The position numbers were made by a program, and so were the translations under genes. From positions 395,850 through 459,849 of the forward strand of contig NMRA01000110.1 of NCBI GenBank assembly GCA_002633005.1: 64,000 nt of DNA, read 5' to 3'. The notes below the pieces were generated by a model. The model did not search any database. It saw only the letters and a list, made by a program, of their open reading frames with translations, and was not told the DNA's origin. Positions 27,541 through 64,000 of this stretch are shown here, in pieces (positions within the stretch are counted from its first letter, which is position 1; each line of letters opens with the position of its first letter). This DNA comes from Phoronis australis. Its lineage: Eukaryota > Animalia > Phoronida.

Positions 27541-29448
27541 CAATTTCAGACAGATGTTACATCCAACACGCCAGTTTTCAATGCACAAATATCCAAAGGG
27601 TCTTCCTTATCTCATAGCTGTATACATTTTTCCTCACAAAATTGTCGTCTCACTAAATTAGAGCCTGAAAGAAAGCAATAAAAGAAACAGATTTGAACGG
27701 ACAGTGCTGGACAGTATTTATGATAAAGCTCTACATTTGCAAGACTGAGCTTTCAATAGATTCTTCATAAATACGAGTGATCAACAAGTTCAAATCATAA
27801 ATACGTAAGAATAATATTTGCATTTAACGTGGGGACATGATACACCAAGCATCTGCAACAAAAGATTAGAGCATCAAAATTATTATAATCCTGTTGAAAG
27901 CTGTCGATGGTTAGCCGTAATGTAGAACAGTTTAGAGACTGTAAATGAAAATTCCCATCAGTCGCACGTTATCTTGAACTGTAGGCAGAAAATGTGACTG
28001 AATATCTGGACATCCTTTCAACTCACCAAGTATCACATTGTACAAGTTACACACTGCTAGTTAACACAGTCAAACTTACCACTAGAGCCAAGCTTTCCAC
28101 TGTCTCCTAAGTGAAATGATTAAGTCACGGTCAATGACTACAATATTCCAGCACAAAAGGTAATCATAGTGGAAATTCTACTATAGTCTCCCTACCTGAG
28201 AATCCCATTTATGACATTAGATCAGTCCAGACATGTGAATGACAAGGAATTCCTTTTTTGTTCCTTCAACAGTCTAATTACTTTCATGGCCAACTGAGCC
28301 TTACAAGGTAGTCAGAGGGCAACAGTTTACTTCATCAAACCAACTGTAAAGAAGCCAGCAGGAAAGACTCTCCACTCTGATAGGGAAATAATAAAGCTAA
28401 TCCACTTGGACACAATAGTACATGTAAATCCCCTTCAACCATTGACTGCACACACCTTCTGAGTCCTTTCCACTCTCCCCTCTGTCACTCCCTCTATGAC
28501 TGCTGCTAGTCAACACTTAGGAAACAGTTGCAGAAATAACCAGTGATTAGCTTACCTTAAATAAATAATCAGTTCATAGAGCAATTAAATTGTTGTTATG
28601 AATATGCATTGACCTCCAGCCCAGGTAGGACAAAGTAAGGGTAAGGTAGGTGGACCCTTACATTGTCAGCCATAAACAGGCCACAGAATGAGCCCCCTTG
28701 TTGCAGTTTATAAGTAGATTAGTTTGCATGATTGATGGCTTTGTCAGGGCCCTGGTTACAATTCATGCAGAAATCAGAGCCTAGTGTGGAATCATAAAAG
28801 TTAAAGAATGTAGTGTGTTTAGAGTGACAACAGGTATATAGAGGTCAGATCATGTAACAATTTCTATATAATTATTTTCATTTATATTCATCTCCTCTCC
28901 TGCTGAACCCTTAACTTCAACAAGCCATTTAACACAATGAAAAGTGAACACAAAGCCCCAGAGATTTGATAACCTCCATGACTTGGATGATGGATCCCCT
29001 TGTTGATGTAAACCCAAATGTTACAGAACAACTCAAAAGTTGACAACGTCAAGAGACAGCGTCCAGAAATAATTGATATACTATATATCTACAGAAATAC
29101 CAGAAGATGATAAATTTGCGAAAATGGTTTTCATGACCAAAGACACACATTCTTAAAAATCCCAATTCATTCTAAATGAAAATAAAACGGAAAATATTTG
29201 AACAAAAATATAAATAGTAAAATAATTATATTTGATTGCATTTTTAATATTGGACAGTGGAATGCATGGACAAAAAATAACTACTTGGACACTGAAAAAA
29301 GCGGAATAAAAAATCAGTTTAAAAACAAGTGTCAGTACAGTAAGATCCTAGAACTTCGCGAAATAAACAAAACCATAAGACATGATATATAATCAATATT
29401 ATTCTACATAAAACTGGTAATTTCAAGATGTTGTTAAAATTCCCCTGA

Positions 29449-41691: not shown

Positions 41692-44600
41692 ATGAACCAA
41701 GGAAGTGATGAGGAGGCTCCCACCACGTCACGCTCCAGCCACTCTACGAGTTATCTCCTCTGCCAGACATCGGCGTATGAGGACCACTATGATGGCGACT
41801 CAGACTCAGACACAGACAATGTAACCAGACCTAAACAGAAAGAAATGGGAAAACTGTTACACAAGCGTCGCTCGGTAAGCAGTCAAGCTATCTGACTAAC
41901 ATACTTGCGTTGAAGTTTATTAAAATTTAGATTTATCTGGTTATCAAAATTGTAATCTTCCATTTTTCGAAAAGCCCACTGCATCACTAGAAATCCCCAA
42001 TTTCTCTCTGTGTGTTGATTGACAGGACCTGTGCGATCAACAGGACCTGTGCAATATCAACTCTCCTACTAGTGATATTAAAACCGTTTTTTTTTTTATA
42101 TTCGGCAAATTTTGGTTTCACTGTTCTGTCATGTTGTGCTATAATTTGAAGAAGCCGGTCAGTACTCAACTCTGTGTATGGTAGAATTTTTGGGGTGATG
42201 GATGGGGGCAGGCCTTCATCCAGGATTTCGAAAATAGGGTGTCCAAAATGAGGTTCCCAATATTCCAGGGCGTCCATAATTCCGACGCGTAACCCCCCAT
42301 CCCCAGCAATCCCCCCAAACACACAGATTTTTTTACAAAAAAATGCATAGACCAAGGTTTTTACATCTAAGTTCACAAAACAGCCTTCTGTAGTGAGCAT
42401 TTTTAATAAAACATTGGTGTAGACCAAGACTTTTACAATGCTATCAACCAAGTGTGAGCATAGCAACATTGTATATACTTTGTATATACATTGTATATTT
42501 CTTCCTGCTTTGAAAAAAGAGCCCCCACTGTGAGCCTTCAGAGGCTTCCTAGTAATCATTACAATGTGTGTGTCCAAACTTGAAAGGTTCCTATTGACAG
42601 TGGGCGTCCAAATGATACATTGGGCGTCCTTGCCAGGGCGTCCATATTAGTGCTGGGGCGTCCATTTGGACGCCCAGGACGTACGCTGCATGAAGGCCTG
42701 NCTGCTGTTTAATTTTTATTTCCTTGAATACAGAAGACTCCCTCAGACAGCCCTTTAGACACACATCTGACTGACGATGATTATGAAGAAGAGGTTGACA
42801 ATGAAGTGGATTCAGAACAGATAGAGGTGTCCGTACACCCCCTGCCTAAGATCATTGAGCAAGCGGAGGAGATCGCACACAAGGTGTGGGAGGCTGGCTG
42901 GGAGGTGGTCAGTCACCATCATCTGCCACAGTGGCTTAGAGACAATGACTTTCTACTGCATGGACACCGGCCAGAGCTGCGCTCGTTCATTGAGTGCTTC
43001 AAGTCCATCTTCCGTATTCACACAGAGACTGGCAACATCTGGTCACATCTCTTAGGTAATCATGTACTCTTGTTGCTATGGAAACTCCTGTGTACCCATG
43101 TTCTGTCACATAAACTCCCGTATACCCTTGTTCTGTCGCATAAACTCCCGTGTACCCTTGTTCTGTCGCATAAACTTTCATGTACCAATGTTCTGTCGCA
43201 TAAACTCCTGTTTATTCATGTTCTGTCACATAAACTCTTGATTTAGACCTGTTGTAAACTGGTTTCATCTTTCTCTGATAAGGCATGAAGAACTGAGAGT
43301 TGATTATTGTTAGAGACCCGCTTTGGGTATACAATACTTGGCTGTGTCAAGTTAACTTATTAAGTGAGGAGGCAGTGTGACCTGGTTGATAAGTGCCCGC
43401 TTTCTTTACTCGAGGTCGTGGGTTCGAGTCCCACCAGGTCACACTGCTAAACCCTTGAGCCAGGTTTCTAGCTCCTCAGCTTGGTTTTAACCATATACCA
43501 ATAAAGCATAAAAATATTTCCAGTTGGTCAGTGCAATGGGCCCACATGCGAGGCCTGCGCACGTCTGGTACAACGTGTATCAGACCGCCTGCAATTAATT
43601 TATAACTCATTAAGCTTGATCTGAGATAAGTCCCAATGCGTAATCAAACTCACAAGTTCAGTGGTGCAATCCAACCATTTGCTGGGCCAGCTAATCCCCA
43701 CAGGTTAACTGGCATACTCTTTGAAGCATATTTAACTGAAAACGACACTAGCCTTGACTTCATCTTGTGGCTGGCAGACAGCAGTGAATTATGGTGATTT
43801 GTAATGAATGAACAAAAACAATTACTTTTGTTGTTTAATTGTTATGGCCAAAGCTAACAACTTCATGAAGTTTATCCTATCCAGCGATATTCTCAAAATG
43901 CATTTTTCGGCCCCAAAACCATGCATGTCCATTTAAGATAGTTTCGTCCTAGTCTCAGAAATTTTTATCCATTGTTCTTAATGAGGGACTTGAGGTTTAT
44001 TTCATTGCCATTGTTTATGTAGTGTAATAAACAAACAGTCTTTGGATTTTTGTTGTTCTCTATGTCTGCTCATGACTAAGTGCTACATGTCCGTGGTTCT
44101 TATAGTGTTAGTAATAATTCGGTGGAATTTCATCTTCAGCGCTGCTGTCGGTTTTCAAATGCTTTGTGTGACTGTTGTCAGCTTGTAAACATCTGGTGAC
44201 GTGTAAACAATGCAACACAAAATGTGTAAACAATGCAACACAAAACGTGTAAACAATGCAACACAAAACGTGTAAACAATGCAACACAAAACAACATTTG
44301 TCACTTGAGTACACCACAATTGAAAACACAAAACTACTGTAACGGGTTTCTTGGTGCAAGTAGGTTAAGCAACCATCTTAAGTTAAAGGTGGAAAGTGAC
44401 CCTCAAACTGCATCAAATGATATTAGTAATTTTTTGCACAAAAGGTTCTCAAGGCATGCGCTGTCTGGTCACACTGGAGTAATTATGACAACTCAAATTT
44501 TAAATCCGATCACACGTTTACTAGTTATCTGTGCTGTCACTTGATGTTTCCGTGCTGACAACTGTCCCTCAATGCATTTTTCAGCAGTGCCTTACATAGA

Positions 44601-46722
44601 TGGAACAAGGGGAAACTCATTTCTGGAGTAATGCCATTTTTTGTTTCAATAAGTCTTCCTCGTAACTGGAAGATTGTATCCTCATTTCCCCTGACTGTTC
44701 ACTTCACTATGATCTTTCCCTGCTGTTTACCGACTGTGTTCACATGACTAATATATCCCTGTGTTCGCATGACTAATATATCCCTGTTTATTCTCTGCAG
44801 GCTTCACAGCATTTGTCGGTATGACCATGTACTTCATTTCACGGCCCTCCCTCGAGATCCAGTGGCAGGAGAAGCTGGTCTTTTCCGCCTTTTTCTTTGG
44901 CGCCATCTTGTGTCTCGGATTCTCGTGGGTTTTTCATACGGTCTACTGCCACTCGGAGAAAGTGGGAAAACTATTCAACAAGTAGGTTTTTAGTGTTTTT
45001 AACCCATTATGATTCACCGGTAGTTTATTCTGCGAGCCGTTGGTATAACTCAATCTTGATGTTTTATTCATGTTGTGATAAAAATCTAAAATATTTAAGT
45101 CACAGTTGACTGTATATGAGTGGATATTGCATTTGTCACATTGAACACGTGACATATTAGATTGGCGTGACCAGTGCTAAAGCTCGTTGTTTGACGACAT
45201 TGGATGTAGTTTGAACACAAGTTGTTGTCATGCTAGGCAAGCTGCCTCTAGAAATCTATCTACTTAGTCTATCTACTCAGTGGAATAGAAATCAAAATAT
45301 TTACCCTCAATGCATCACAACTGGTGATTTTCAACCTCATTTCCGTGTAGCTCCATGCTAGTTACGACCTTGACCTTTCACCAAGTGAGCAGGTCTGTCA
45401 TCGTATTTCTTCAGAAGGAAGTCAGCAATACTGTTTTATCTGTATACTTCAGGTCTCGAAATTTTACTCTTTTAAGAGGATTTCCTCTTTTTGGTTTCTA
45501 TTTCCTGATATTTGATTTCCAGTTTCCTTTTGTTGTCGTCTCTTTATTATCGTTATTTCGACTCTATAATGTTTCTTGCTGTTAAATTTTACAGCACAAA
45601 AACTATTTGTATCACATAAGCCTATTTATTTGTAGAAAGACACATCACCTGGAAAATTTTCCTCTTTTTTATCGTTGGTCATTACAAGCGCTGATCACAT
45701 GTTGGGACACAAGGTGTCACTCCTGACTTTCAACTATTGTGCCATTTCTTGGTTTATGATTGCACTGTACCTTTGCTCAATCTTGCGGTGTATTACTCCG
45801 TCCGTTCACTTACCTTGCAGATTAGACTACTGTGGTATATGCCTGCTGGTGATTGGCTCCTTTGTGCCGTGGCTCTACTACAACTTCTACTGCAGTCTTC
45901 TACCCAAAGTCTTATACATCGTGTCAATCTTCGTTCTGGGAATGGCCTGTCTTATCGTTAGCCTTCTCGACTTTTTCGCCACGCCCAGATTTAGGGCGTT
46001 CCGTGCAGGTGAGAGCTCACATTACAATTTAGCACTATGTAATTTAAGAATGATTAATATTTGGCAGTGGTTGCATCATAATCTATTCATGCAGACATAA
46101 TTACATGGCAGTAGTGTGTGATTCCTCTCCAGTTGGTACTCATGCTGTCATTGTATACAAATAATCTCTGTCTCACATTTTTCACTTCCCATTTCACTGT
46201 TCACATATCATTTCCCCATTCTAGGAATGTTTATTGCCCTGGGACTGAGTGGCATCGTACCCGCCATGCATTTTGTAATAGTACACGGGTTCTGGAACGC
46301 CATCAACAAAGCAGCCCTTGGCTGGCTCTGTCTCATGGCTCTCCTATACATCGTTGGTGCTGTCATCTATGCGGTGAGGATACCAGAGAGGATCTTCCCA
46401 GGCAAATGTGATATTTGGGTGAGTACTGGGAAAACTCCTCCATTACTGTTGCAAGTTTGTGATTTCAGTTTAACCTAATTACCACTAGGTGGGGTTAACT
46501 AGTGAAGTGTAAATAAAACATTAATTCTTAGATGTCGTTGATGTTGTGCATGTGTGCATAATTATTTCCTCTAGCGGCCATCTTTTTTTCCCACAGTTCC
46601 AGAGCCATCAGCTGTTCCATTTATTCGTGATCGCCGCAGCCTTTGTGCATTACCATGGTATAACAGAGATAGCTCACTACAGACTGTCGCTAGGAGACTG
46701 TATGGAGACCATTGCTGTTTGA
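41692..46722 (+). CDS. ADIPOR: Adiponectin receptor (AdipoR / PAQR family, 7-TM Zn-binding), 6 coding exons, 397 aa
   Basis: join(41692..41874,42734..43055,44801..44981,45821..46008,46225..46418,46597..46722). All introns are GT-AG, phases are compatible, total 1194 nt. Hallmark motifs: LPQWLRDNDFLLHGHRP, SIFRIHTETGNIWSHLLG, SWVFHTVYCHS, KLDYCGI, RIPERIFPGKCDIWFQSHQLFH. Confidence 0.97.
42209..42700 (-). mobile_element. hAT-like MITE, same family as 39481-40160, inverted
   Basis: TIRs CAGGCCTTCAT...ATGAAGGCCTG; shares GGGCGTCC subterminal repeats; right end abuts the single N at 42701. Confidence 0.8.
43078..43240. repeat. 30-bp minisatellite, ~5 copies
   Basis: Unit TTCTGTCGCATAAACTCCCGTGTACCCTTG, directly after an AdipoR donor site. 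Confidence 0.9.
43366..43610 (+). mobile_element. tRNA-derived SINE
   Basis: A-box-like TGACCTGGTTGA, B-box GGTTCGAGTCC, 15-bp stem GCAGTGTGACCTGGT/ACCAGGTCACACTGC, then CCCTTGAGC typical of SINE2 bodies; no intact tRNA cloverleaf. Confidence 0.7.
44199..44291. repeat. 23-bp minisatellite, 4 copies
   Basis: Unit ACGTGTAAACAATGCAACACAAA. Confidence 0.9.
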
Positions 46723-47964
46723 CGCCGGTGGGGACTGTTTTAGGAAGCAATAACTGAGAATCTTGCGTGGCAATGTGATGTGCAACCAAATTGTAAATAG
46801 ATGGTGGAGCACAGTCCTTATTTTTGTGCACAGTAGTATAAGTTATTCATGTTTGGACAAAAACAGATTTTTTTCAGACTTATATTCATTAGGTCACGTG
46901 ATGTGGCCAACAGATGGCGTGCTGATGGGACTTAAATGTTTGCAAAAAAAAATAGTTCAAAAATGCTGTTTTTCCATTGGTCAAATGCACTCTACATTTG
47001 TGCTTATTTTTCAATTCTTAGCTTACGTTACAGTAAACCTCACTTAATATTTATTTTTGTTGAAACATTTTGACAAAAAGTGGAATTACATTTCCACCCA
47101 TTGTTTCTGTTAAATTGAAGATTTATTACCGTATCTATACATGTGGCATGTTGTGGGCAAAACTTCTTGACCATTGTAGTCACTGTGAGGATTTTTAGCC
47201 AACAACTGTGGGCTCATATGACTTTAGGGTCAAAGCAATGGTTACTATTTTTATTATAAAGTTGCTATTTGTGAACATTTCTCTTCCATAATGAATCTTT
47301 TCATCTTTTCTCATTGTCTGTAATTGCATTCGACTGTGTTAAACTTAACTACACTCTATTGTACATATCACTATGCATTTTTTGGTGTACTTGTGGGCAG
47401 AGGGCGTGGCTAGACTATTTGGGCACCGCCCCCTTGATAGAATGATGTAACTTAGCCTTAATTAGTTGATCTCCTGATTGACAGGTCTTTATTTACCATT
47501 GAACTTCCAGCATTGGCACATCAATTCTCATCATCATGTTTGTTTTGATTCTATCTACTTTGCTGGTCCACATGTTTACACGAGGTACCCAGTCAACATG
47601 TGCACACCAGATGGCTCTACTGGTACTAATAACAGCTGTTTGATCACCAGTTTCATATGAATGTACTACAAGTCTGCTTGAGCATGATCATGTCATCAAT
47701 GTGGGGGATTTCAATTTCAAAATCCCTTGGTATGCAATTTGAGGGATTTCGTCTGTGGGCTGTTGTTTTTCTAATGCTTTGCCAGAGGGTTGTCAATTCA
47801 TAGACGTGTAAACAATACAGTGCCAAACTGCAATTTGGAAGTTTACTGTTGGCCACTGAGGCGATGTGGATCTTCAACTAGAGATAGAAATGCACTGTCA
47901 CATCACATTTTCAAAAAAATTGCGGATCTTGAATTTTTTTCTAATTCAGGTAACTACGGGACGA

Positions 47965-48833
47965 AGGCAACCTTTTTTCATGTCATTTTTAGCAAAAATA
48001 AGGTTCGTTGGTTATCCCAGACATATTTTCCACTTAATTACAGATTTTCGTAATTTAATTAATTAATCGTTCTCTACTCCGAAAGTGACGTTTTGGGAGG
48101 CAACAATTTCGCGCCAATTTCTTTTCATATAGTCTGACTGTGAGAGCCGTCGAGTCGGTCATTGAACTACCTCGGTTGTGATAAATTCTGCCTTCGTTTG
48201 CTTTTGTTTACAAGTCAGTCAACATGCCACACTACGTACCGGAAAGTAGGCCTACTCCTTATGGCCTGTAAGCAGCCCTGCTGTGATGTTGAGTAGTGGG
48301 AGTGAATACAGGCCCAGTGAAGAGGACAGTTTGACTTTCAATGAACAGATTGGTGATCCAAACTTTGGTAAGTTTATTGTGGACTAGTCTAAAGTATTGG
48401 GTCTATTTAGAAGGTGCCAGGTGTGTGGCGAGAGAGTCACACGGCGGGGTATAAGCTCGGGTCACTATCCAGTGGGAGTGTGTTGCGGGACACTCGGGCA
48501 AGTGGGACAGCAGTTGTTCCTCTGTCCGTGAGACGATAATGAGTACATCGCAGTACGCAGCAACAATGTGACATGTTGACTGACTAGTAAACAAAAGCAA
48601 ACGACTACCGAACTTATCACAACCGAGATAGAACAATGACTGACTCGGCAACTCTCACAGTCAGACTATATGAAAAGAAATTGGCGCGAAATTCTTGCCT
48701 CCCAAAATAACACTTCCGGAGTAGAAAATGAATAATTAATTAAATTACGAAAAGCTGTAATTAAGTGGAAAATATGTCTGGGATAACCAAGAAACCTTAT
48801 TTTTGCTAAAAAAGACATGAAAAAAGGTTGCCT
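47965..48833. mobile_element. Long-TIR (foldback) non-autonomous element, Kolobok-like end
   Basis: Inverted repeats of ~220 bp (47965-48187 vs 48611-48833); termini AGGCAACC...GGTTGCCT, with TTAA on the right side only. Confidence 0.8.
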
Positions 48834-49073
48834 TTAAGATCTATTTATTGAAACAAGACTTAAGACAAATATAAGTTTTATCTTGAAATTGACTGAACTT
48901 AAAGATTTGTATCTGTTATTAGGTGTAACCAGTGAGCACATTGTCTTTAATGTCCGAGTGATGTTTATTTACCTGTGAGGCATGATGTCCATTGTTGATT
49001 TCTTGTCAATGAAATGAAGCACTCTGCCTGTTTAACCCCTGGTACAAAAATTATGGTATTTCAGTAAGGTGTC

Positions 49074-49478
49074 TACTAGTATCCAGAAAACTACTAGTAT
49101 CCAGGAGACTACTAGTATCCAGGAGACTACTAGTATCCAGGATACTACTAGTATCCAGGAGACTACTAGTATCCAGAAAACTACTAGTATCCAGGATACT
49201 ACTAGTATCCAGGAGACTACTAGTATCCAGGAGACTACTAGTATCCAGGAGACTACTAGTATCTAGAAAACTACTAGTATCCAGGAGACTACTAGTATCC
49301 AGGAGACTACTAGTATCCAGAAAACTACTAGTATCCAGGAGACTACTAGTATCCAGAAAACTACTAGTATCCAGGATACTACTAGTATCCAGGAGACTAC
49401 TAGTATCCAGAAAACTACTAGTATCCAGGAGACTACTAGTATCCAGGAGACTACTAGTATCCAGGAGACTACTAGTAT
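49074..49478. repeat. 18-bp minisatellite, ~22 copies with three interleaved variants
   Basis: ACTACTAGTATCCAGGAG / ...CCAGAAA / ...CCAGGAT. Confidence 0.95.
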
Positions 49479-49938
49479 ACATGTGAGAATGGCTTCAGCG
49501 TATGATGTAAGGGTTACAATATTGTTATTCATTGGTAACTTGTTGTATTTGTTAGACTGCTGGAGTAAAGAGAAATATTTATGTCATGTGTCATATATTA
49601 AACATTAAAAGTGAGGTGTCTTCTTGTCTTTGTAATTCTTGTTTATCCAATGGGCATGGCTGTGATGACGTGTTAGTTCTATGTTCATTCATGAGTCTAT
49701 CTTTGACAGGAGGATAGTTTAAAACTTGGTTTTCCTGTTAAGTAGCGTTTGTATTTTCACACGTCATCAGTTAAGCAATAGACAAAAATGCGAGGAAGCC
49801 ACAGACGTATAAGTGAATGTTAGAGCTAAGCACTGCTGTTGGTTAAAGACGCGTGTTGAATGACGACGAGGGTGGCCGAGGACCGCCGCTAGATGGCATC
49901 ACGGTGGTTGACTGATGCTTTGGGGTGTGTACCCGGAG

Positions 49939-52510
49939 CTAATGATGATGTGGGAAGCACCCGCGAGTAGAATACTTGTCCAGTACTGTACCGTGCACAG
50001 CGTCTATGATACACGTGTGCTGGGTACCTTGAGATACATGTATGTTCATGTAGTGGACTTGATACGCGATGCGACAAATCGTTTCTTGGCCGGGTGTACC
50101 TGCAACGGTAGGTGTTTCGCTTTCATTATAAAGACTCTAAGGTAGTTTTAATCCTGCAATGATAGCGGAAGTGGTGATTTTGCAGAAAATGAATTTCTGT
50201 AGCATGAAATGAGAATGGATACTACGCTCTGCTACGTGTGTCACTATGGCAAAGCTTACAATTGGGTAAATGACGTCGTCACATGGTTACGAATCCTGGG
50301 GTCGACATAGGGCCGGAGACAGTCGAGAGAAAGAAAAAGCGAAAAATCAAGTAAAAGGTGTTTGGTTGTATCGCAGTCTCGCGTGGTCGTAAGTTTCTTG
50401 GGTCTGTTGAACATAGAGTATACCTACCCGTGTATATGTAGAATCTCGTAGATGGGAAGAATACCGTTTGGGGGGCTGTTTGACGAAATGCAAGCTTGCA
50501 CTTTACTATTGCCTCCTGCGGCGTAATCGATGGGGTCACGTTACCTAATAAAGAATTGAATGATAATTAATTCATGTCGGGATGATGTAAAACGTACAAC
50601 ACTGTAAGAAAATCATTGAAGACTGGTGCGTGTTTCAAGAGACCAAATCGATTTTTTGTTTAAAAATTAAGTAGAAAATCGAGCCAATTTTTTTTCATTT
50701 TCTCCAAGACATTGAGAATTGATTTATTAAAAATGTGACTCAAATTGCAACTTATATCCATGGATAGAAAATCGAGTCGATTTCATTTTTCTAATTCACT
50801 TGCGAATCGCACTGTGCAGTCGAGGCCACATTTTCCTCGTCATATGTATACGCCCAGTGTGAGGTCGTGGGCACATTTTCCTCTTCTCATTTTCCACACG
50901 TACAACGACGGTCAGGCCAATACTGTCAGTCGCTTCATTGATTATTGCGACGAGACGATGAAAAACTACTTTGGAACTATCAAAACGGTGTCGCTGAACT
51001 GGTGGATCGGACTTCTATGATAAATAAATATGACGAAGTTGGAACAACATTTTGATGTTATTGCACATCTTCTGAAACAAGAAATTTGCGATGTTATTTC
51101 CTGCTCGCAAGACGACAGGGTCCATCTGATTCGTGCACCTCCATCTCGGACTCCATGAATGAATTTGGGAAAAACTGTTGGATTCCGTCAGCGATCAAAC
51201 CCCGTGATGTGATACGCACCTAAGGTGACCTATGCAAAATTGCAATTCTGTTTCTGAAGCGCTTAACTGGTCGACGCGTCGTCAGGACTGATGCTTCCAT
51301 CTTATTGGTTGACGAGGAAGTTTGACTGATTGACATTCAAATAATTTAAGCTTTTTGCTTTGTTCTTCCGTATTTGCCGATCGCATATGTGCGTAAGAGT
51401 TTAAAGTTTGTAGTGACTTTTAATTCTTACGTTCTGAACTCTGCACTTCCAATGTGAAGAAAATGAAAACCAAGAATAGTGTTTTAATTTTCATTATCTC
51501 AAAAATACGAAGATAATAATTGACTCTTATTTTCTATTTTCGGAGAAATTGTAAGAACGAAAAAGTAAAGCGCGGAAATTGGCTGGATTTTCTAATTTTT
51601 CAGTTTGTTTTCAAAAACAAAAACGATTTGCTCCTTCGTTACACGAACCCACATTGGATGTTTTTAATTGAGAAGCGCTGCAAAAAGACACATCTTGGTC
51701 ACAGTGTGCACTACTTATTTCCGTCACAAATGTGGCGAGGTTGGTATGAATAATTGAACTCATTGGATGAACTAATTGTAATCTGTCCTTCATTTTAATC
51801 TACTAGTTTAAAATAAAGGAGAGATTATCAGTTGATACTAATTAGGATTCAAAATAATTTTAAACAGAGCTCATTTCATTTCAACTTCTTAATTTATCAA
51901 AATTACTAATCCGAACAGTACCAAGAGGAGAAGTAACAATCCACGACGTTTGGTAATGCGTGGTTGTGAAATGAGGATGTTCTCCTTCGGTTATCCATAC
52001 CTCTCAAGTCGTGTCCAACTCCCCTAACAATTTGTCCATACGCCCAGCCGGTGAACACGTCTGCTTCATTACCTTCCCTCGTATTTCTCTCCAATACGAT
52101 GCTGGCGTCATACACCTCCACGCCTTTGTATATCTGTTTATACTTCGCCTGAAGCAAATGATTTTCAACTTTTTTCAAAAATGTGCATTTATTAAAACCA
52201 CTGTTCTATACTTTAAAACATAATTGTCAGAAAGTCGTTTAAAGTTGTGTTTAGTCTTGACTGGCTGACTAGAAATCGAAAATTGAATCGGGTCTTATAT
52301 ATGTCGATAATGACGAACCTTCACAAAGCCTTGAGCGGTGGTGAAAGGTCTACCGGGTACAAGCTGGTCAGCAGCTTGGAAACGGAAAAACAAGTTCCTC
52401 ATTTCAGACATGGTGAAGTTCCTGTCTCTCTGCCGACTTAGTGGCAATCTCTCTTTTATGCAGCCTTCAGAAAATGTCGAGAAAACAATCACTGAAATTG
52501 AAAAAAACAT
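49939..52510 (-). CDS. Secreted M4/thermolysin-family propeptide-only protein (FTP + PepSY), paralog A, 205 aa; shortened signal and tail, possibly decaying
   Basis: complement(join(52319..52510,52001..52148,50428..50544,49939..50099)); same intron positions and phases as paralog B; MFFSISVIVFSTFSEG...AKYKQIYKGVEVYDASIVLE...TPSITPQEAI...RIAYQVHY...CIIDAVHGTVLDKYSTRGCFPHHH*. Confidence 0.72.
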
Positions 52511-54299
52511 AGTAACAAGTTAAAACGAAGGGATCCTGCTTCATTTAGAGGGTTTCAACAAAATCGGCACTTTCAGATCATTCATAAGTCACTAAAAGGT
52601 AGCACAAGTAATCCTTATTTAGCGGTCTTTGTGTTTTATCAAGACGAAGGCAATAGAGACTTGTGTCTGTTGATGTAAAGGAATCTAATGAACTGAAGAG
52701 TATGATGTACAAAGCGTGACTTAGGCTACACAGCTATTTGCATGCACTATAAACATTACATAATGTTGGTGGCTAAGAATAATTATTGTGTACGCCATGA
52801 TTAATTACTCTGACAGTCAGTCTAAACTACTGGAAGCGAACAATGAGCTGACCGTGTTACAGATAGTTCCAGAGATGAGTTACAGTGGCAGATTTAGGAC
52901 ATCATAAGGGGACCCAACATTTTGTCTTGGGCAATCGCGCAAAGCATGAGTGCTTGCGCGCCCGCGGCTTAAATTACTGGGGGGCTCGAAATTTTGTGAA
53001 TGTGGACCTTTATGAAATGAAAAGGTTCCCTTGTTCAACTACTTCACAAATATACAGAAGGGCTTTGACGCCGGCCCTTCATAATTGACTTTGACTCACA
53101 TGAATGTACCGTTTGCATGTTCAACCATCGTATGACATGCGCTCCAGATCCGAGTGTATCGTGGGCGATGTTTTTTTTTCTGGTAAAACAATTAAAGCGG
53201 TTAGTGCACATGCTACACGCTACGTAAATTTGATGGATTTCTCAGTAGAATTTCTAATGAGGTGGCAGTAGTTATTACGGTTGGCAAGCGTTCCTACCTA
53301 GTCATTGCTGGGCGCATCAAATGGCACTCAGTTGTAGAGTCAGATACCAAGCAATAATGAATTGCCCGGAAATCTTTTCTAATTTTACCTGGGGTCAAGA
53401 ATTTGAGATCATTATCATGATTGAAGTCATCCAAATCGTTTGAAGTTTTAATACGTCCTTACGTTTTGTTCTTAGACCTAGATCTGCCCTGGGCAGCCTA
53501 CTTGTTCCATCATGACTTCATAAGCTGAATTTGAACAATTCAAGTCAAACCCAACATTTCCCCAGAACAACAGCTAGTGGATCCGCACAAGTCTCCTGCG
53601 GCCGCTTTATTTCTTCATGAGATTGTGTAGTCATCGCCAGTTCGGCTGCCAAGCCAATACTTCAAAATGTAGTCGGACAATGCGCAGCTTTACCAAGGCA
53701 AATGCACCACAGACATAAAAATCTGTTGAAGTTAACCGAGTCACAGATTGACTAAATGCTCGGGACATTGAAATACTCACCCAAGAGAACCACACTTGTA
53801 GCCATGTCTCTTGCCAGCCAGGTGTGTGCCATGGTTAATTACTCCTAAAACACAGGTGTACGGTGCAGTGACAACACCTGTATTAATCTAAGTATGTAAA
53901 ACAGTAAATGCGTATTCACAGGCGATTGTAAAAATGGACCTGTAGTGGTAATTTCACCACAAATGCTATTTCACTCTGGCGTTAAATATATTTATGTGAG
54001 AATATGGACTCGTCTCACTTATACCCCTTTTTTCTTTCTTTCGGACTGCCGGATCCATCATTAGTCCTGAGTAGATTCGCATGCGGTCCTTTTGCACACG
54101 GGGCACTAGGCTGATGATTATCACGTGCCATAGGGTTAACCTTTGTTCTCAGTAACCATATGTTTCCTGTTTTCTTTGAATTCTGACGAGTATATTGCTT
54201 TGCTATCAAGTTTGTTTTTTAGTTCGCGGAGGAAAATCTTCAAATTTCGACTGAAGTATGTTGCTCTGACACTAAGTTAAGTTGTTTTGTACTTGGCCG

Positions 54300-54780
54300 A
54301 CGAAAAATGTGACCTGTAGACTGCGAACAAAACAAGTAAAAAACTTGACGTCAGAGCAACATACTTGTTGGAATTCGAAGTGAAATTTGCACACAACTTG
54401 TAAACCCAAAAGTCGGGGGAAAAGCCTGCTGTTGGCGTCATGATCGGATTTAAGATGGCGGACGTGGCGGCCACTTTTTATTCATTTTCCGTCTAAGACT
54501 CAAGGAGACCGCAATTTTTTGAGTAAAAAAGTGAAAATTGTCAGGGTTGTTGCGCAAGACGTGTGCTACAGATGTGCAGGATAACATTCAGTGGCGGTCA
54601 AAGATGGCGGAAATATCGCCCATGGCAAATGCGCACTTCGATTTACACTCTATCACAGTGCTAAACGAAAGTATAGGTGGCGCTGTGTCAGAGGGTAACT
54701 TCGATTTCGAGTAAAAAAAGTTTTCTCCTGTAGAGGGCGCAATATCAATCCGATTGCTTCAAAATGTTTTCATATATTAG
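54300..54780. repeat. Interspersed repeat related to 35150-35620
   Basis: Shared motifs as above; several AAGATGGCGG words. Confidence 0.55.
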
Positions 54781-56289
54781 CTCTTAATATTTATCTATAC
54801 TTTCCACCATCACCTCAAATGGTCTATTTAACTAATTCAACCAATTGTAGCGCCATCTGAATTATTACTAGCATTGCAATTGTGTTGCCATCTGTTGTCA
54901 AATGGTTACTTGAATCTACTCCACTTATCTTAATCAGTAGAGCAATCTTGGTGCTTTGAGTTCTTAAATTCATCAAAAATAAAGTTTTTGCATGAACCAT
55001 CTGAAGTATTACTATAATTGCTAGAAGAAAGACCTGCGAGTCAGTGACCGTTGAGCACAGTGCGGAAACATTTGTGCATGAATGAAGACTAAACGATGAT
55101 AATGAAAAAAGCGAACACGGGAATTATATAAGAGGAAATCAAAACCAAAGTCAATCAATAGGCCAAGTATAACCCGCCAAGTATAACCCAGGAAGAGTTT
55201 TTTTTGTTACGACAATGCTTTATTTGATATAGCTGAACAAGTTATAAACACTTCACAGAAAACATCAGAGACTGTCAAAACATCAACATTGAGTCTTTTC
55301 TCACAACATGAGTTTGTGGAAAACTCGCCTACTCGTTATTTAGTGAATGCCAGAACAGAAACTACCAAAACAGCAAAATACCGTGATAAATCTTGTTTCA
55401 CAACATAAGTATCTGGCAATCGAATCGCTAGCATATTGCTTAAAATAACACTCAAAATTACCCTAAATTAAAATCCTATATTTCTGCCGTCACAAACGTT
55501 TGACCTCAGTTGTTTTGGAAGCACAGATTTCATTTATTTTTCAGTTATATTTATGTGTTACACACCAGAGCTGGTATCCGTGATTGAAACTTTAGTTTAG
55601 TTGTAGAACCTTTTCTACTTTAAGCCTTTTTCTTCTTTGTTACATCTCGTTTAAAGAACGAGCTCTCTCATAATTGAATAAGTTTGGCATATCGGCGGTA
55701 GTTAAAAGTATCAACAAATTACTGTGTTCTTAAAATGGTTTGCTTGTTATGAACTTTCAAATCTATTTTCAGACCCTTTTATGTAAAAACGAGCAATGTT
55801 TGGAATTAAATATAAAAATGCAAATATTGCCATGTCCTATAATTCATTATTATTGAAAATTCAAAGTTGCTTAGATTTCAATGTCTCACATTTTAGAGAT
55901 TCTTGAATTGGAGAATTTTTAGCATAGGAAAATATTTTTTCTTCCAAATATGTGCTATCTAAAACAAAAATGGTCAAAAGATTCTGAAATTTTAGCAGTA
56001 AATAAGACGCTTTTCAATTTCAAACAAAAACTATTGCCAACATGACCATTCCTCTATTATCAAAGGCTGAACTACAGTATTAAGGGTGATAAAAATGTTT
56101 CTATGTTTTAAATTGTTTGAAGGCAACTGCACAGTGCAATCAATGCTAGTAATGATGCTCATTTCTCTTAATGCTTACTTTTACTGAGCATACTGACAAA
56201 ACAAAATTCCATCTTTTACTCATACTGTGTGCTAAAGTGAAGAGCATTTTGGTTATTTGTTTCAGTAAAAAGGGTTACTGTTTGTAATA

Positions 56290-56830
56290 AGGCTAAGTGT
56301 TTAGATGAAACGTTATTCAGGTTGACAAAAAATATTCCGGGTATCGTGGAGCAGGCTTGCAAAGATGTTTTTTAAACTTTATCATTAAAGTTGAGCGCAA
56401 CATTTTTGTTTCCTGTCAACTCATGGAAGACATTGAACGGTTTGTATGCAAGCTGTACGTGACTCATCATCAACAGTAAAGCACGTTACCGCATATTCAG
56501 GTTGAAATCTGTGATGGAATCAGCTCTGACTCTTAATCATGACTGTCTGCTGTTACGTGCCAGAAGAACAAACTACCAGTGCGCCATTCACAAACGAGCC
56601 TTTCAACATCATGTCAGTGCACCACTCATCTCCAGTTGGTAATGGTTGCCTTGGAGCAAGGTACAGTAGTATGAGGTTCCACTGGATGACTTTGCCTTTA
56701 GCCCCGAAAATGTCACGACAAATGTTAATTGTAAGTGTGAAGAGTGGTTGTAGTAAAAATGGGCTTTTGTTTGAAGTCGGGCATGTCATGTTCTAAGTAG
56801 TGTGACTGTTGGGATTGTGTAAACACGGTG
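56290..56830 (+). pseudogene. Degenerate AcademX-like transposase C-terminus (XPG-adjacent region + Cys-rich zinc finger)
   Basis: Frameshifted pieces IERFVCKLY..ARYRIF..RARRTNYQCAIHKRA..SPVGNG..HWMTLPLAP..NCKC.SGCS..KSGMSCSK.CDCWDCVN; TAGCC(C)AGCCAGCT end-like motifs near 57544 and 58212. Confidence 0.65.
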
Positions 56831-58723
56831 TGTCAAGAAACAACTTTTTATGACAATAGTAAGGGTATAAATGAGTGGATGAGGAGTGTGTGCTATTTTG
56901 TTAAAGAACTTTAAATTTGTAGCTTAAAGGAAAATATTGACAGCATTTTATTATGCTTGTGAGCCTCAGGACTGCATGTTCCCCTGTGACAGTTGGCATT
57001 GAGCTGCACTGTAGATACTGACAATTAATGGTGACAATTAATGAAAATAATGACAGTAAATTCATTGCAGAAGTGTTGGAAATGTTTGTTGCTCATATGT
57101 AGGTTGTAACATCAAATCTTTTTCAAGTTCCAAACGGTTAACAGTATTGTTCTTTTGTTAGGAGTTCAGAATCTAGTGGTATGTTTTCTACCCAACAGGA
57201 AGCGCTGCTAAATGTTTTCTTTTTCTCTTTTTTGAGCAATTTTCCACCCAATATCATAATATTTATCATTTTTCTTGTGCAATAACTTCAAATTATTGTT
57301 CACTTTTTGTCTAGTGTTGTTGGTTTTTGAAGATTGGTTTTCTGTGCCAAGTTTTGGAAAAATTCTGTTTTTTGAGGACAAATTTCTCGAAAATGTGTAA
57401 GTCAAACCTTGTGAACTTTTTAGATTCTTAAAGTATAGTACTTAATGACATTAAAACACCAAAATTATCTTGCTCCAAAAAAGTGGCCACGGAAGTGATT
57501 TTTGAGGCTTCCTAGTGTCCAACTCGCTGGTTGCCAGCGTGCTTAGCCCAGCCAGCTGCCGTCGCCCCTAGCGGCACGCAGGGAACCAGCGAGAGTGTCC
57601 AATGGACTATGGCCACGCGCATGCGCCATTTCCTAAATTTTCAAGACATCTCGGGAGATAATGATAGCCAATGAGCTATATACAACTCATTGATGGTAGC
57701 TTGGCAGCAGCAAAATTTCTTCTCAATGAAATTCGGTTTTTCGGTATCAAAATTCTAAAAACTCATAATGAAGTGAAACCAGTTCCTATAAACTGTTGTG
57801 ACGTGTACGCAACCTCGTGAAAGAACAACAGTTGATTGAAGAATCGGCGAAAAAAGAAACTGCCCAATAGGTGACGCATACTTCGTGGTGTCGAAAGAGG
57901 ACGCATAAGATCGCTCCACAATTTTAGCTGCAGAATAACGGTAGAACGCCATTTTTTCCAATACCAGAGGAATGGTGTAGTTTTTAATGACACTAATTTT
58001 TTGTCAGATTTTATCTGGTCATTTTTTTACCCACATCGGCGTAAAGCTGTACATTTAGTACACAGCTTTGTACCAAGGCTCGTAACTTCGAAGATAAACA
58101 AAATTCTTTAGTTAAACTCCAAAATTTGCCTTAAGTTTCTAAAAATGAGGTAGAAAATTAAATCTGAAACTAAATCAGGCGATCCAGATCCTCTCAAGGA
58201 TTTGACGAGTGTAGCCAGCCAGCTAGCTGTATGAAGACTGTCCTCAAAATACAGCTAGGTACCGTGTTTCCATATTTTGTATACAGCTTTGTACCAAGAT
58301 TGACGAAATGTAGAATATATATAGGCAAATAAAACAACAAAAATGGATGATCTGATATTTTCGGATATTATGATAACACCCTTTGTAAACAGAAACAGAA
58401 ATAAAGTAAAACCAAACACTATATGACAACTGACATCTGATATCTGGAGTAATGAACATGATACATTGTTGCGGAAAAAGTAAAGGATATAATTTAAGAA
58501 TTCTTTATGTTCAATCCATTAGGTTCAAGAGTGGCTTATGTATCCAAAATTGTTCTCTTTTGAGTCTGTGAGGGGTACTGTGGTATTGGAGATTTTCTAT
58601 TATTTGTACAGAAAGACCTTGAAGATTATAGTTTTTTGGAATTAAAATGATTACCTATGGTATAAGAAATATCTATATTCTCACGGTATAAGAATGTTAG
58701 AGTTAGGGACTGCTCTTGGGTGG

Positions 58724-61499
58724 CTAAAGACGCATGTTAAATGGCGACAAGGGTGGTCGAGGACCGCCGCTAGATGGCATCACGGTGGGGCGTGATGGTT
58801 TGCTGGAGCCTGTACCCGGATCTGAAGAACGAGGTTTCGGGAAGAACTTGAGGGTAGAAAACTTGTCCAGTACTGTACCGTGCACAGCGTCTATGATACA
58901 CGTGTCCTGGGTACCTTTAGATATGCTCAGGTAGCGGACTTGGTACGTGATTCGACAAAACGTTTCTTGGCTTGGTTTACCTGCAACGGTAGGTGTTTCG
59001 TGTTCATGATCAAGACTTTAAAGGTATCGGGTATTTTTAATCTTGCAATGATAGCGGAAGTGGTGATTTTGCTGAAAATGAATTTCTGCAGCATGAAATG
59101 AGAGTCGGTACTACGCTCAGCTACGTGTATCACTATGTCCAATTTTTAAATTGCGTAAATGACGCCGTCACATGGTAGCGAGTCCCGGGGCCGCGGGACA
59201 TAGGGCCGGAGGTAGTCGAGAGAAAAAAAGCGAAACATCAAATAAAAGATAGTGATTTTGGTCGTGTTTGCGAACACAATTTTGATAGAGTTGCTAGTGT
59301 GGGTAGGTCTTTATGCTGAGATTGTTTGATTACCGAACGCGTTTCTGAAACCTACGTACACTGGTGAGAAAAGCTAGGATAATCGCGAGTTAGGTTGTAA
59401 CGCAGTCTCACGTGGTCGTGAGTTTCGTGCGTCTGTGGAATGTAGACGATACCTACCTGTGTATATGTAGAATCTCGTAGATGGGAAGAATACCGTTTGG
59501 GGGGCTGTTTGACAAAATGCAAGCTTGCACTTAATAATTGCCTCCTGCGGCGTAATCGATGGGGTCACGTTACCTATAAAGAATTAAATTATAATTACTA
59601 CACGTCGGATGATGTAAAACGTACAACACTGCAAGAAAATCATTGAAGACTAGAGCGTGTTTAAAGAGACCAAATCGATTTTTTGTTTAAAAACAAACTT
59701 TTAAAAAGGACACATTTTTTATTTTTTGCTTTCTCCAAAAATTGAGAATTCGTTTAGTTATTGATTTATTAAAAATGTGACGAATTGGAACTTATATCCA
59801 TGGATCGAAAATGGAGTCGATTTCATTTTTCTAATTCACTTGTGAAACAGAGTATTCAGAAAATCAAAGTCTTATCCGTTTTTGCCCATTGTGCAGTCGT
59901 GGCCACATTTTCCTCAAGTCATTTTCCGAGGGTCAGGCCAAAGCTGTCAGTCTCTCCATTGATTAGTGCGACGAGACGATAAAAAATTGCCAACCTACTT
60001 GCGAACTATCAAAGCGGTGTCGTTGAACTGGTGGCCGGAATTTTATGATAAATAAATATGACGAAGTTGGAACATTTTTATGTTATTGCACATCTTCTGA
60101 AACAAGGAATTTGCGAGGTTATTTCCTGCTCGCAGTTACCAAGACGACAGGGTCCATCCTGATTCGTGCACCTTAATCTCGGACTCCATGAATGAATTTG
60201 GGTAAAACTGTTGGATTCCGTCAGCGATCAAACCACGTGATGTGATACGCACCTAAGGTGATCTATGCAAAGTTGGCTGTTTCTGAAGCGCTTAAGTGGA
60301 CAAGTCGTCAGGACCGATGCTTCAATCTTATTGGTTGACTAAGAAGTTTGACTTTGATTGACATCCAAAAAGATTTGAGCTTGTTGTTTTTGTATACCGT
60401 ATTCACTGATCGCATATGTGCGTAAGAGTCTAATGCAATGTAAAGAAAACGAAAATCAAGGGTAGTGTTTTAATTTTCCGAAAACTTGATAATTAATTCA
60501 TTTTTAATTTTTTTTAAATTTTCCATTTTTCGGATAAATTGAAGAACGAAAAAATAAAACATGGAAAGTTTGCTGGATTTTATAATTTTTCAATTTGTTT
60601 AAAAAAAATCGATTTGGTCTTTTGATACACAAACCCAGAGAATCATCACTAAGTCCTGATTCAGTGTGACCAAATATTTCCGTCACAAATGTGGCGAGGT
60701 TGGTATAAACAATGAGCTAAACACAACATTAAGCTCATAGGCCCTAGGATTCAAAATAATTTTAAACATAGTTTTAACAGAGATATCATTTCAACTTAGT
60801 AACTAAATTACTAATTCAAGTAGTACCCTGAAGAGAAGTAACAATCCACGACGTTGGGCAATTCGTGGTTGTGCTTAAATTCCGAAATGTTTATGAAATG
60901 GAGATTTTCACCTTCGGTTATGCATACCTCTCAAGTCGTGTCCAACGCCCCTAACAATTTGTCCATACGCCCAGCCGGTGAACACGTCTGCTTCATTACC
61001 TTCCCTTGTATTCCTCTCCAATACGATGCTGGCGTCATACACCTCCACGCCTTTGTATATCTGTTTATACTTCGCCTGAAGCGAATGATTTTCAACATTT
61101 TTCAAAAATGTGCAGTTATTAAAACCGCTGTTCTAAACTTTGAACATAATTGTCAGAAAGTCATTTAAAATTGCGTTAAGCCTTGATTGGCTGACTAGAA
61201 ATCGAAAATTGAATCGGGCCTTTTACTCTTGTCAATCAGTTTAAATTGATAATACGGCGATAAAGACGAACCTTAACAAAGCCTTGAGCGGTGGTGAAAG
61301 GTCTACCGGCGACAAGTTGGTCGGCAGCTTGGAAACGGAAAAACAACATCCTCATTTCAGACAGGGTGAAGTTCCTGTTTCTCTGCCGACGTAGTGGCAA
61401 TCTCTCTTTTAAGCAGCACTCAGAAAATGTCGAGAAAACAATCACTAAAATTGAAAAAAGCATAGCAATAAGACGTGAACGGATCGGATATTGCTTCAT
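58724..61499 (-). CDS. Secreted M4/thermolysin-family propeptide-only protein (signal peptide + FTP + PepSY + Pro/Ser tail), paralog B, 249 aa
   Basis: complement(join(61272..61499,60928..61075,59457..59573,58724..58980)); GT-AG introns, phases 0/1/1, 750 nt. Hydrophobic N-terminus MKQYPIRSRLIAMLFSILVIVFSTFSEC; FTP-like KAKYKQIYKGVEVYDASIVLE...GQIVRGVGHDL; PepSY-like TPSITPQEAI...FYIY...RITYQVRY...CIIDAVHGTVLDKFS; ends ...PRPPLSPFNMRL*. No HExxH motif. Confidence 0.8.
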
Positions 61500-64000
61500 G
61501 TAGTTTCACCAAAATCGACACTTGGCACAAGTCACTCAAAAAGTAGCACTGATTCATACAAGTTCTTATTAGCGGTCAGTCCAAAGTATGACGTAACTTC
61601 CTTATCGTTAGAAAATGTTATCACAATATATTGAAGAAACTCTGTTCTAGATCTAGGGACCAGTAGCTTTAGTTGGTAAATCTGTCGGTTGTCAGCACTC
61701 ATTTTTTGTATTGAATTATTTTGGTATTGATTATTCTCATTTCCGTGCTAGTGTATCTATTGTAGATGAGGGGAGGGTGCTACCATAGATGAGTTGGTAT
61801 ACTTGACGTAGTCAAAAGGGAAATTTCGTCACCAGTTTCTTTATGAAATGAAAAGGTTCCCTTGTCCACCTACTTCACAAATGCTTTGAGTCTTGACTTT
61901 GACTCACATTTATAAACCGTGTGCAATTTAATCGAAGTTAAGCCATCTTATATGCGCTCCAGATCTGTACCGTGTGCAAGTTAAACCATGGTATGATATG
62001 CGCTCCAGAAATGTACCGTGTGCAAGTTAAACCATGGTATGATATGCTCTCCAGATCTGTATCGTGGGCGATATTTTTTTTGATAAAACAATTAAAATGG
62101 TTAATGCACATGATGTCTATTACACGCCACATGAATTTGATGGATTTCTTAGTGCTATTTATAATGAGGTCGCAGCAATTGTAACGTCTGGCACGCGTTC
62201 CTAACTTGACATTACTAGTTTAATTTCACTATAATCCAGCATTTCTAAAATCTGAAAGAGAATTTTATTGTTTAGTTAAAATGTCTATGAAACCGCGTTC
62301 CGTTCAAGAAATCCACTTATTTCCGACCACTCATACGCGTATAAAACTGGTCTTGATCTAAGTTCCTTACTCAAACGGCCATTGGTTTCTGTTATTCCTC
62401 GAGGGCTTGCTTGGCGCACAATATGGCACAAGAACTCGACCTAAATGAAGATAAGCTTTTATTCTAAATATTATCTAAATTTCTTTTTAAAATTAACTTT
62501 GTGACTCGATAAAATTGTATACACCTAACTTTTGAGTATGAAAATGATTTATTTATATTCGTAATGATCTGTCATTATAACTTTAACATCATTTTTTTAA
62601 TTAAGTATTTTTGTATAAGTGGATATAAATTTCTTTGTATTTATTTAACTTCCTGGCACTTTCTGGGTATGTATATTTAGTACTGAATATTTCATAATAA
62701 ACATTACAATAAAGAAGTGCACAGCTTTACCAAGACATCTGCAACACACTAGACATCTATTGAACTTCACCGTGTCCCAGATTGACTAAATGCTGGACAC
62801 TAAAATACTCACCCAAGAGAACCACACTTGTAGCCATGTCTCTTGCCAGCCAGGTGTGTACCATAGTTATTTACTCTTAAAACACAGGTGTACGGTGCCG
62901 TGACAACACCTATATTAATCTATGGGAAAATGATAACAGCAAATACGCCTTTACAGACTTGTAGCGCTAGTTTCACCACATACGAAATTATTTAGCTCAA
63001 CTCTTAAAATTTTTCCGATTCTTTCTAAAAAATAAGCGTACTCCAAATAGTGCTAAGCAAGGCACCCTCTTTAGTCCGTCCTGTCCGCTTATACAGAAAC
63101 AAGATCCAGAATTAACTACAAAACGAGGGATATTTTCCAAAACCCTTTACGTTCCCTATGATTTAACAATGTAAAAAACCTGGTGTAGACGTTATCTGAA
63201 ATTCATTAAACTAATGACATATTGAAATACCATCAAGTGGTCCTATAATTTCACTTATGTATTACAGGTGTCGCTTCATTGAACACGCACCAACGCATGT
63301 TAGGTGTAACGGAAACACTCTACGAAAACTGGGATAGAAATAAACCCAGCAAGTCTCTCGATCAATTGGACTTATAATTAAAGGTGCATGGTACGCTTTT
63401 GTAGAACACAATTGAAATTACTTAGTGGGATACAGGACTGTTTAACACTACGTCACCAAAGCAACAAAACAATTGTCGACTCTAGTTGGTGCAAGTGACC
63501 TTACGACTTGGCTCTGTGGTAATTATCATGGGAAACCAATGCAAACAGTTGATCAATCCCCTGTCACAAAAGTGGAGTTCTTGAATAAGCCACTTATACA
63601 GCAACCAGGTGTGGACAAGAACCAGCCTTGGACGGGGAATCTTCTATACACTAGTGACCTCGGAGAATTGAGACCCCCACCCCCCACACAGCTGCAAGAG
63701 GCCAGAGAGCGTAAAGAATATTCCTTCAGTTTCATGGGCCCTGATGAACAAAAACAGCAGATCCAAAACGCCGAGAAAGTTAATTCCCAGCATTTTTAAC
63801 AACCACCTTCTGGAAATGGTTTAAATTCTCCCTAAACTTGCCTTTTACCACAAAAACAATATTTGATTTAGACCAGTCACCAACATGAAATTCTTTTCAG
63901 GGCAGTTCTTTAGTCAAAAGGATGATTTTTGGGCTTGGAAAGAGCTTACAATCTGTTAATGGTCGAGTCCAAGTAAGCTCACTTTGATAATCTTCTAATT

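Follow-up and report, generated by a model that had tools for sequence, protein, structure and literature searches.

An expressed tandem gene pair in Phoronis australis encoding a bacterial-type M4 propeptide without a peptidase domain

The window studied here is a 64,000-nucleotide (nt) stretch of the phoronid Phoronis australis genome (contig NMRA01000110.1, positions 395,850 to 459,849). It carries on its minus strand a tandem pair of expressed genes, which we call copies A and B and which together span 49939-62837. Both have five exons, and both encode a signal peptide followed by a region homologous to the FTP and PepSY domains that make up the propeptide of bacterial M4 (thermolysin-family) proteases. 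Neither is an M4 peptidase, since the transcripts seen have no catalytic domain and end in untranslated region (UTR). The layout is that of a stand-alone propeptide-like inhibitor, in which a separate, expressed gene encodes the proregion only; the inhibitory activity is putative. We favor, at a probability of about 0.45, the reading that the product is secreted and would bind M4-type proteases in trans and either inhibit or chaperone them.

Gene Structure and Transcription

A first-pass annotation, made from the nucleotide sequence alone, described two minus-strand paralogs, and that description stands. The genes lie in a tandemly duplicated segment, about 4 kb long with a distance of about 9 kb between the copies, and have paralogous blocks at 49807-52605 and 58686-61549 (77-82% DNA identity) and at 53008-53890 and 61839-62922. 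We selected RNA data by species label (three stranded raw-read runs, X1-X3, of which 18-19% each was read, and one contig set) and mapped them on 49500-64000. The first mates of exonic reads fall on the plus strand, which corresponds to minus-strand RNA in most stranded library types.

All six predicted junctions (three introns in each of two copies) are present in the stranded reads, at canonical GT-AG sites. Summed over X1-X3, the predicted introns of copy A are crossed by 41, 33 and 61 reads. Those of copy B, for which the annotation had singled out junctions 61272-61075, 60928-59573 and 59457-58980, are crossed by 21, 11 and 24 reads, nearly all from X1. The reads also contain an additional joint, from 52489 to 53781 (57 + 33 reads), which adds an upstream exon encoding the first eight residues of the signal peptide. 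The genes are therefore five-exon rather than four-exon as first drawn, and the signal-peptide start that had been placed at 61499 has to be given up, because the hydrophobic stretch there lies in intron 1. Identical intron phases had been predicted, and they are 1, 0, 1 and 1 in both copies. We infer the first junction of copy B from a cross-mapped joint and from the depth on its exon 1; among the joints listed, exon 2 of B joins exon-1 sequence that was placed on A (14 reads).

The coding part of exon 1 lies at 53781..53805 in copy A, where it contributes codons 1-8 of the signal peptide. Its counterpart in copy B, 62813..62837, is identical over these 25 nt and has a same-strand depth of 9.3 in X1 (bin 62568-63051). 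Exon 2 (A, 52319..52491; B, 61272..61444, with joints at 61444 and 61271) encodes, judging from the joints and the translation of A, the remaining signal peptide, an N-terminal segment and the first FTP strands. Exon 3, likewise bounded by joints in A, carries the FTP core and a linker (52001..52148); in B (60928..61075) the FTP core is identical in protein sequence to that of A. Exon 4 (A, 50428..50544; B, 59457..59573) is bounded by joints in the RNA reads and in A aligns to the helix and first strand of PepSY. The coding part of exon 5 encodes the putative PepSY sheet in both copies. In A (49939..50099) a short tail and a TAG stop at 49941-49939 follow, whereas in B (58724..58980) the sheet is followed by a 39-residue Pro/Ser-rich tail and a stop at 58726-58724. 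All of these exons are on the minus strand. The sequence motifs quoted in the annotation are present, as is the stop directly after the PepSY-like region.

The spliced products are 207 amino acids (aa) long for A and 239 aa for B. Translation may start at the ATG at 53805 (A) and 62837 (B) or at an in-frame ATG nine codons upstream (53832 in A, 62864 in B), which is kept in both copies. The predicted signal peptide has its hydrophobic core at residues 4-12, with a mean hydropathy of 3.43. The mature proteins are basic, with isoelectric points (pI) of 9.4 and 10.0, and contain extra cysteines and two N-glycosylation sequons. The sequence of the Pro/Ser-rich tail is common to both copies; B translates it, whereas in A a 1-nt indel puts a stop in frame and leaves it in the UTR.

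The 3′ UTR of copy A, on the minus strand at 49540..49938 (the lower end is approximate), is covered by unbroken same-strand depth and contains the homolog of B's coding tail. We mapped the 3′ end of A over 49490-50140 at a likeness of 80%, recording every difference. Depth is unbroken from the exon-5 acceptor past the stop to about 49540, and no joint leaves A's last exon in this interval (depth 17-50). At A's stop codon, where depth is about 24 in X1, 49 in X2 and 17 in X3, none of the 22 differences listed makes a change. Loose ends of X1 reads at A are B's own sequence, and these reads cross B's stop into B's UTR; in X1 this stop is a different stop codon (10/10 reads). No further paralog was found at a likeness of at least 80% among exon-5 reads. 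Both copies are transcribed at a modest level, with no more than about 7-17 reads per kb per million in the last exon.

Most of the reads mapped on 49500-64000 from X1-X3 are just 90-99% like the window, and the alleles of X3 differ from those of X1 and X2. This read likeness suggests a highly polymorphic species or divergent populations.

Absence of a Catalytic Domain

A catalytic profile built from 18 bacterial M4s was searched against the 2825 six-frame open reading frames of the window, and its best match reached 5.5 bits (E 1.5). Spliced A and B contain no HExxH motif and score 2.6 and -2.3 bits with this profile, below their shuffles. Three HExxH-like strings do occur in the window; they are distant from the pair and do not match the catalytic profile. 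Together with the reads that end in UTR, these results bear out the original observation that no HExxH catalytic exon lies downstream. Onward splicing from A's last exon was rejected, since no joint leaves it in the reads; reads from B cross B's stop.

In pairwise alignments, residues 208-215 of B pair weakly with the first residues of the mature domain of the bacterial proteins. We considered whether they might be a relic of a catalytic domain and set the idea aside because the alignment is too weak. The Pro/Ser-rich tail is common to both copies, and the catalytic domain would therefore have been lost before the duplication.

Homology to Bacterial M4 Propeptides

The proposed homology of the FTP and PepSY regions to gamma-proteobacterial M4 propeptides is upheld, with a clear FTP half and a PepSY half that is weak but collinear. 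A profile of bacterial vibriolysin-type propeptides matches residues 58-200 of the two products at 43.1 and 42.1 bits, and the best of 1000 shuffles reaches 13.4. The FTP half alone, searched with a local profile, scores 25-26 bits against 8.6 for the best shuffle, and the invariant Q and G columns of FTP are retained. Exon 3, scanned as a single exon, matches Pfam FTP (PF07504) with an E-value of 7e-4 and 19.9 bits against a gathering score of 21; it covers only profile positions 19-39 because intron 2 splits the domain. No Pfam match to PepSY (PF03413) was obtained with exon 4 or exon 5 scanned singly, and two true M4s (L012 and L045) also fall under the Pfam PepSY cut-off, with 22.1 and 19.5 of 24 bits. 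Exons 2-5 of both copies gave no match to Inhibitor_I29 or Inhibitor_I9 in Pfam at E-values up to 1, and the NCBIfam search yielded nothing usable. The Atlas gave 0.87 for FTP and 0.89 and 0.86 for PepSY clusters.

When exon 3 was compared with 72,556 plasmids by tblastn, the only three matches were all to annotated Salinivibrio M4 genes (E 2). Spliced B aligns with the Salinivibrio M4 over 139 columns at 29% identity (pairwise E 3e-11), from the FTP strands through an IDA-x-G motif. The best-scoring relative is an M4 of Vibrio caribbeanicus (L012, 37.8 bits); sampling was centered on Vibrionaceae, and this top rank therefore names no donor. All relatives retrieved are M4s, partly by choice of scaffold and from comparison sets without M36 sequences. 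Across 69 mostly Vibrionaceae sequences, A keeps 20 and B keeps 21 of 78 conserved columns, and the two-domain layout and the IDA-x-G motif stay in register with the bacterial propeptides.

We also modeled single exons. The predicted model of exon 5, whose fold was guided by bacterial sequences in the alignment, is a three-stranded sheet with a predicted local distance difference test score (pLDDT) of 81. Foldseek ranks the MCP-02 propeptide (3nqy_A) first for this model, with a probability of 0.99 and a root-mean-square deviation of 1.6 over 36 columns (E 0.53). A sequence-profile search with a partly bacterial profile also puts 3nqy_A on top, while the best VIA-align hits to the exon-5 model (Z up to 3.9) are unrelated chains. 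Exon 3 modeled alone gave no fold (pLDDT 45). Single-exon matches to sequences in the PDB (gp41, carboxylesterase) were discarded as chance.

Compared with vibriolysin-type M4 proteins (MCP-02, 3nqy/3nqz; Pseudomonas pro-elastase, 8cr3; L012; and L001 of Salinivibrio), A and B have the signal peptide, FTP and PepSY in the same order and register. They differ in having neither a catalytic nor a PPC domain, in their four spliceosomal introns, in an identity of only about 29%, and in carrying a C-terminal extension past the cleavage position as well as extra cysteines.

As a separate observation, a divergent bacterial M4-like protein came to light in one bacterial sequence (L048:1237-3228, plus strand), a 664-aa frame with an HEIGH motif and no Pfam FTP or PepSY match. 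Its PepSY region locally resembles A and B at only 15-16 bits.

Relatives and Genomic Context

Searches for relatives were weakened by short queries and word filters. With exon 3 as the short query, none of 10 candidates among longer proteins scored, and nothing was returned at E 0.001 from 1.84 billion representatives. Profile A3 yielded 64 candidates among proteins of 15-254 aa, none of which scored. Among proteins longer than 254 aa, 48 of 2277 candidates scored; all are 47-97% identical to the Vibrio scaffold, and the named ones are from Vibrionaceae. Exons 3 and 2, again short queries, found no animal or propeptide-only relative in metagenome contigs.

The pair is part of the host chromosome and its introns are spliced; among the relatives that the searches returned, the nearest are bacterial. 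Convergent with copy A is a plus-strand gene of AdipoR/PAQR type at 42728..46445, which we take to be AdipoR. It has four coding pieces, and three of its exons match Pfam HlyIII (E 1e-8 to 1e-18). This neighbor places the pair in a eukaryotic chromosome, and together with the spliced introns it rules out bacterial contamination. The texture of the genome likewise speaks for an animal host. Genome annotations of several marine invertebrates include full-length M4 genes. The view of A and B as an intron-gained family of bacterial derivation holds as far as the introns and the bacterial homology go; the members seen are this young pair, which may stem from direct capture from bacteria or from truncation of an older animal M4 gene.

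M4 is described as an almost exclusively bacterial family (PMC7851659) and animals as lacking thermolysins (PMC9002140); intron-bearing bacterial-type metallopeptidases have been described in a sponge, from family M35 (PMC4784904). Titles and abstract openings in the open full-text literature, which leaves subscription journals and most supplements outside reach, mention no animal M4 propeptide gene. The main text of PMC3750612 contains no M4 term, and neither do the supplements of PMC4729200 or PMC12756402.

Divergence between the Copies

A and B are identical at 180 of 205 aligned residues, with a synonymous divergence (dS) of 0.126 and a nonsynonymous divergence (dN) of 0.061. Introns 2-4 differ by 9-13%, near dS, and intron 1 by 25%. 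With a dS of about 0.12, the pair is young.

Within the FTP span there are 0 nonsynonymous and 4 synonymous differences (Fisher p 0.002), so that 0 of 58 residues differ. FTP plus exon 4 gives a dN/dS of 0.08 (p 0.0005), and residues 19-198 give 0.40 (p 0.015). Nine overlapping spans were tested, and the two FTP values survive that. Overall, constraint is mixed: the FTP span is constrained between the copies, while change in the PepSY exon, in the tail and among the alleles seen in reads appears near neutral.

Other Features of the Window

Just beyond the 3′ UTR of copy A is an array of 22.6 copies of an 18-bp tandem repeat (49073-49478), and opposite-strand reads extend to 49490-49620. An inverted pair of 268 bp with 90% identity at 47964-48834 resembles a miniature inverted-repeat transposable element. 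In six X3 reads, similar-looking sequence is joined to the 3′ UTR of copy A at 49738, which is possibly an insertion allele.

Farther away, 18644-25666 contains a 2-kb direct duplication (19934-21938 and 23660-25666, 95.5%) and a 248-bp copy (99.6%) that begins directly after a single N at 22163; these duplications may be an artefact of assembly or haplotypes. A THAP-domain frame on the minus strand at 23198-23503 (E 1e-8) is probably the remnant of a P-element-like transposon. Acidic, Gly/Glu-rich frames at 27223-27606 and 25619-25888, also on the minus strand, resemble coding exons of a gene on that strand and have no meaningful Pfam match.

Possible Function and Alternative Explanations

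The sheets of FTP and PepSY in bacterial enzymes wrap around the peptidase domain, aid its folding, and remain bound as an inhibitor after cleavage, as described in PMC13556211, PMC10017501, PMC3831164 and PMC5078317. In the reading that we favor, the lineage would have started as a bacterial M4 gene that then gained introns, and one copy would have lost everything past the propeptide before the tandem duplication. The two sheets might clasp a protease domain as they do in M4 proenzymes, and the secreted free propeptide could then do in trans what the bacterial one does in cis, helping its partner to fold and inhibiting it.

There are precedents for such an arrangement. MEROPS families I29 (CTLA-2alpha, crammer, BCPI) and I9 likewise include separate genes for an inhibitory proregion only, and free cysteine-protease proregions in animals are reported to inhibit, and sometimes to stabilize, enzymes of their own family, as CTLA-2alpha does with its target (PMC4089206). 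These are unrelated in sequence to A and B, whose proregion is of bacterial type, and their inhibition has been measured whereas here it is predicted. YpeB of Bacillus subtilis, as described in PMC13556211, has PepSY domains without a peptidase domain and serves as a trans inhibitor and proposed chaperone, like our proposal for A and B, but it is a bacterial membrane protein with three PepSY domains and no FTP, and its target is the cortex enzyme SleB.

The partner could be putative M4-type enzymes of the host itself, an assignment that we consider rather doubtful, or microbial M4 enzymes, which we hold to be less probable. Host enzymes are ranked ahead by analogy with CTLA-2 and crammer and because identity to Vibrio propeptides is low. 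A more specific proposal is that A and B are defense proteins derived from a captured bacterial vibriolysin-type propeptide, that they clamp M4 proteases on which marine pathogens rely for virulence, and that the allele differences reflect diversification against microbial enzymes. IMPI of Galleria mellonella (MEROPS I8), a secreted animal protein directed against M4 proteases, is a functional precedent for it, but one with 68 residues, five disulfides and a standard inhibitory mechanism, and it is unrelated to propeptides (PMC9002140). The anti-Vibrio role put forward in the first-pass annotation found no direct support. The copies keep 20-21 of 78 conserved columns, their C-termini are off the bacterial cleavage position, and the PepSY exon is unconstrained between them; we consider the defense proposal improbable.

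A number of results weigh against the M4-binder reading. The PepSY half alone scores only 9-10 bits against 7.1 for the best shuffle, and the sheet predicted for exon 5 came from an alignment-guided fold. The PepSY part of exon 5 has a dN/dS of 0.98 between the copies. Of the coding changes derived from reads, taken from the rows listed (40/274), 13 of 20 are nonsynonymous, a proportion no lower than the neutral 0.775 (p 0.14), and two of the listed allele changes fall within the FTP span. In X1, both copies show H112K, and there are reads in which A-like exons give way to B-like ones; the change in both copies points to gene conversion or cross-mapping, which weakens the comparison of the paralogs. 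The tails are without constraint, and A's stop was made by the 1-nt indel. The C-termini run 5 (A) and 39 (B) residues past the end of the 3nqy propeptide chain, whose C-terminal end reportedly plugs the active site (Gao 2010). Copy B is clearly expressed in only 1 of the 3 raw-read runs. Finally, the weak searches above returned no relative outside full-length bacterial M4s, and conservation over deep time is unsupported.

Another explanation is that the pair are expressed leftovers. A full-length animal M4 gene would have been duplicated in part, with its promoter and first exons retained; that fragment would have undergone a further duplication and would now be drifting with little or no function. 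The near-neutral allele changes among the rows listed, the dN/dS of about 1 in exon 5, the decayed tail and frameshift-made stop of A, the modest expression, the lack of orthologs in weak searches and the possible conversion between copies all fit this explanation. On the other side, the window and the read variants listed show both reading frames unbroken for about 200 codons and every splice site in use, and no FTP residue differs, against a divergence of about 12% at silent sites and in introns. No parent gene appears at an identity of at least 80% among exon-5 reads either, which means that the gene was not truncated very recently or that its parent is not expressed in the material sampled. 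We regard drifting leftovers as somewhat unlikely.

It is also conceivable that the module is under selection with a partner that is no M4 protease but some different hydrolase, or a surface or matrix of microbes, much as the PepSY domains of YpeB hold SleB. Inhibition in LasB is tied to the PepSY sheet and the C-terminus (PMC13556211), whereas constraint here falls on FTP, and the basic character, extra cysteines and sequons of the proteins would suit such a role. Nevertheless, the layout of two domains is kept entire and in register, as is the IDA-x-G motif, and no result suggests another partner, which leaves this explanation decidedly improbable. Very unlikely is a split or hidden enzyme whose catalytic domain comes from a rare isoform or a separate gene, with A and B as obligatory folding helpers: M4 enzymes do need their propeptide to fold (PMC13556211), only part of each run was read and the catalytic search covered the window, but no joint leaves A's last exon, B reads cross B's stop, and the window holds no catalytic relic.

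Here, then, is an intron-bearing, expressed animal gene that amounts to an M4 propeptide alone, a module resident long enough to have acquired introns and been duplicated. If A and B do bind M4 proteases, the route by which a propeptide turns into a free inhibitor would extend from cysteine and serine proteases to thermolysins. Proteases are described as needed for the full virulence of shellfish pathogens, including vibriolysin-dependent virulence (PMC8067407), and M4 binding would make the pair a natural inhibitor scaffold against such enzymes. Should the defense proposal prove true, A and B would be the first free-standing M4 propeptide inhibitors and a second animal answer to M4 proteases, unrelated to the insect IMPI.

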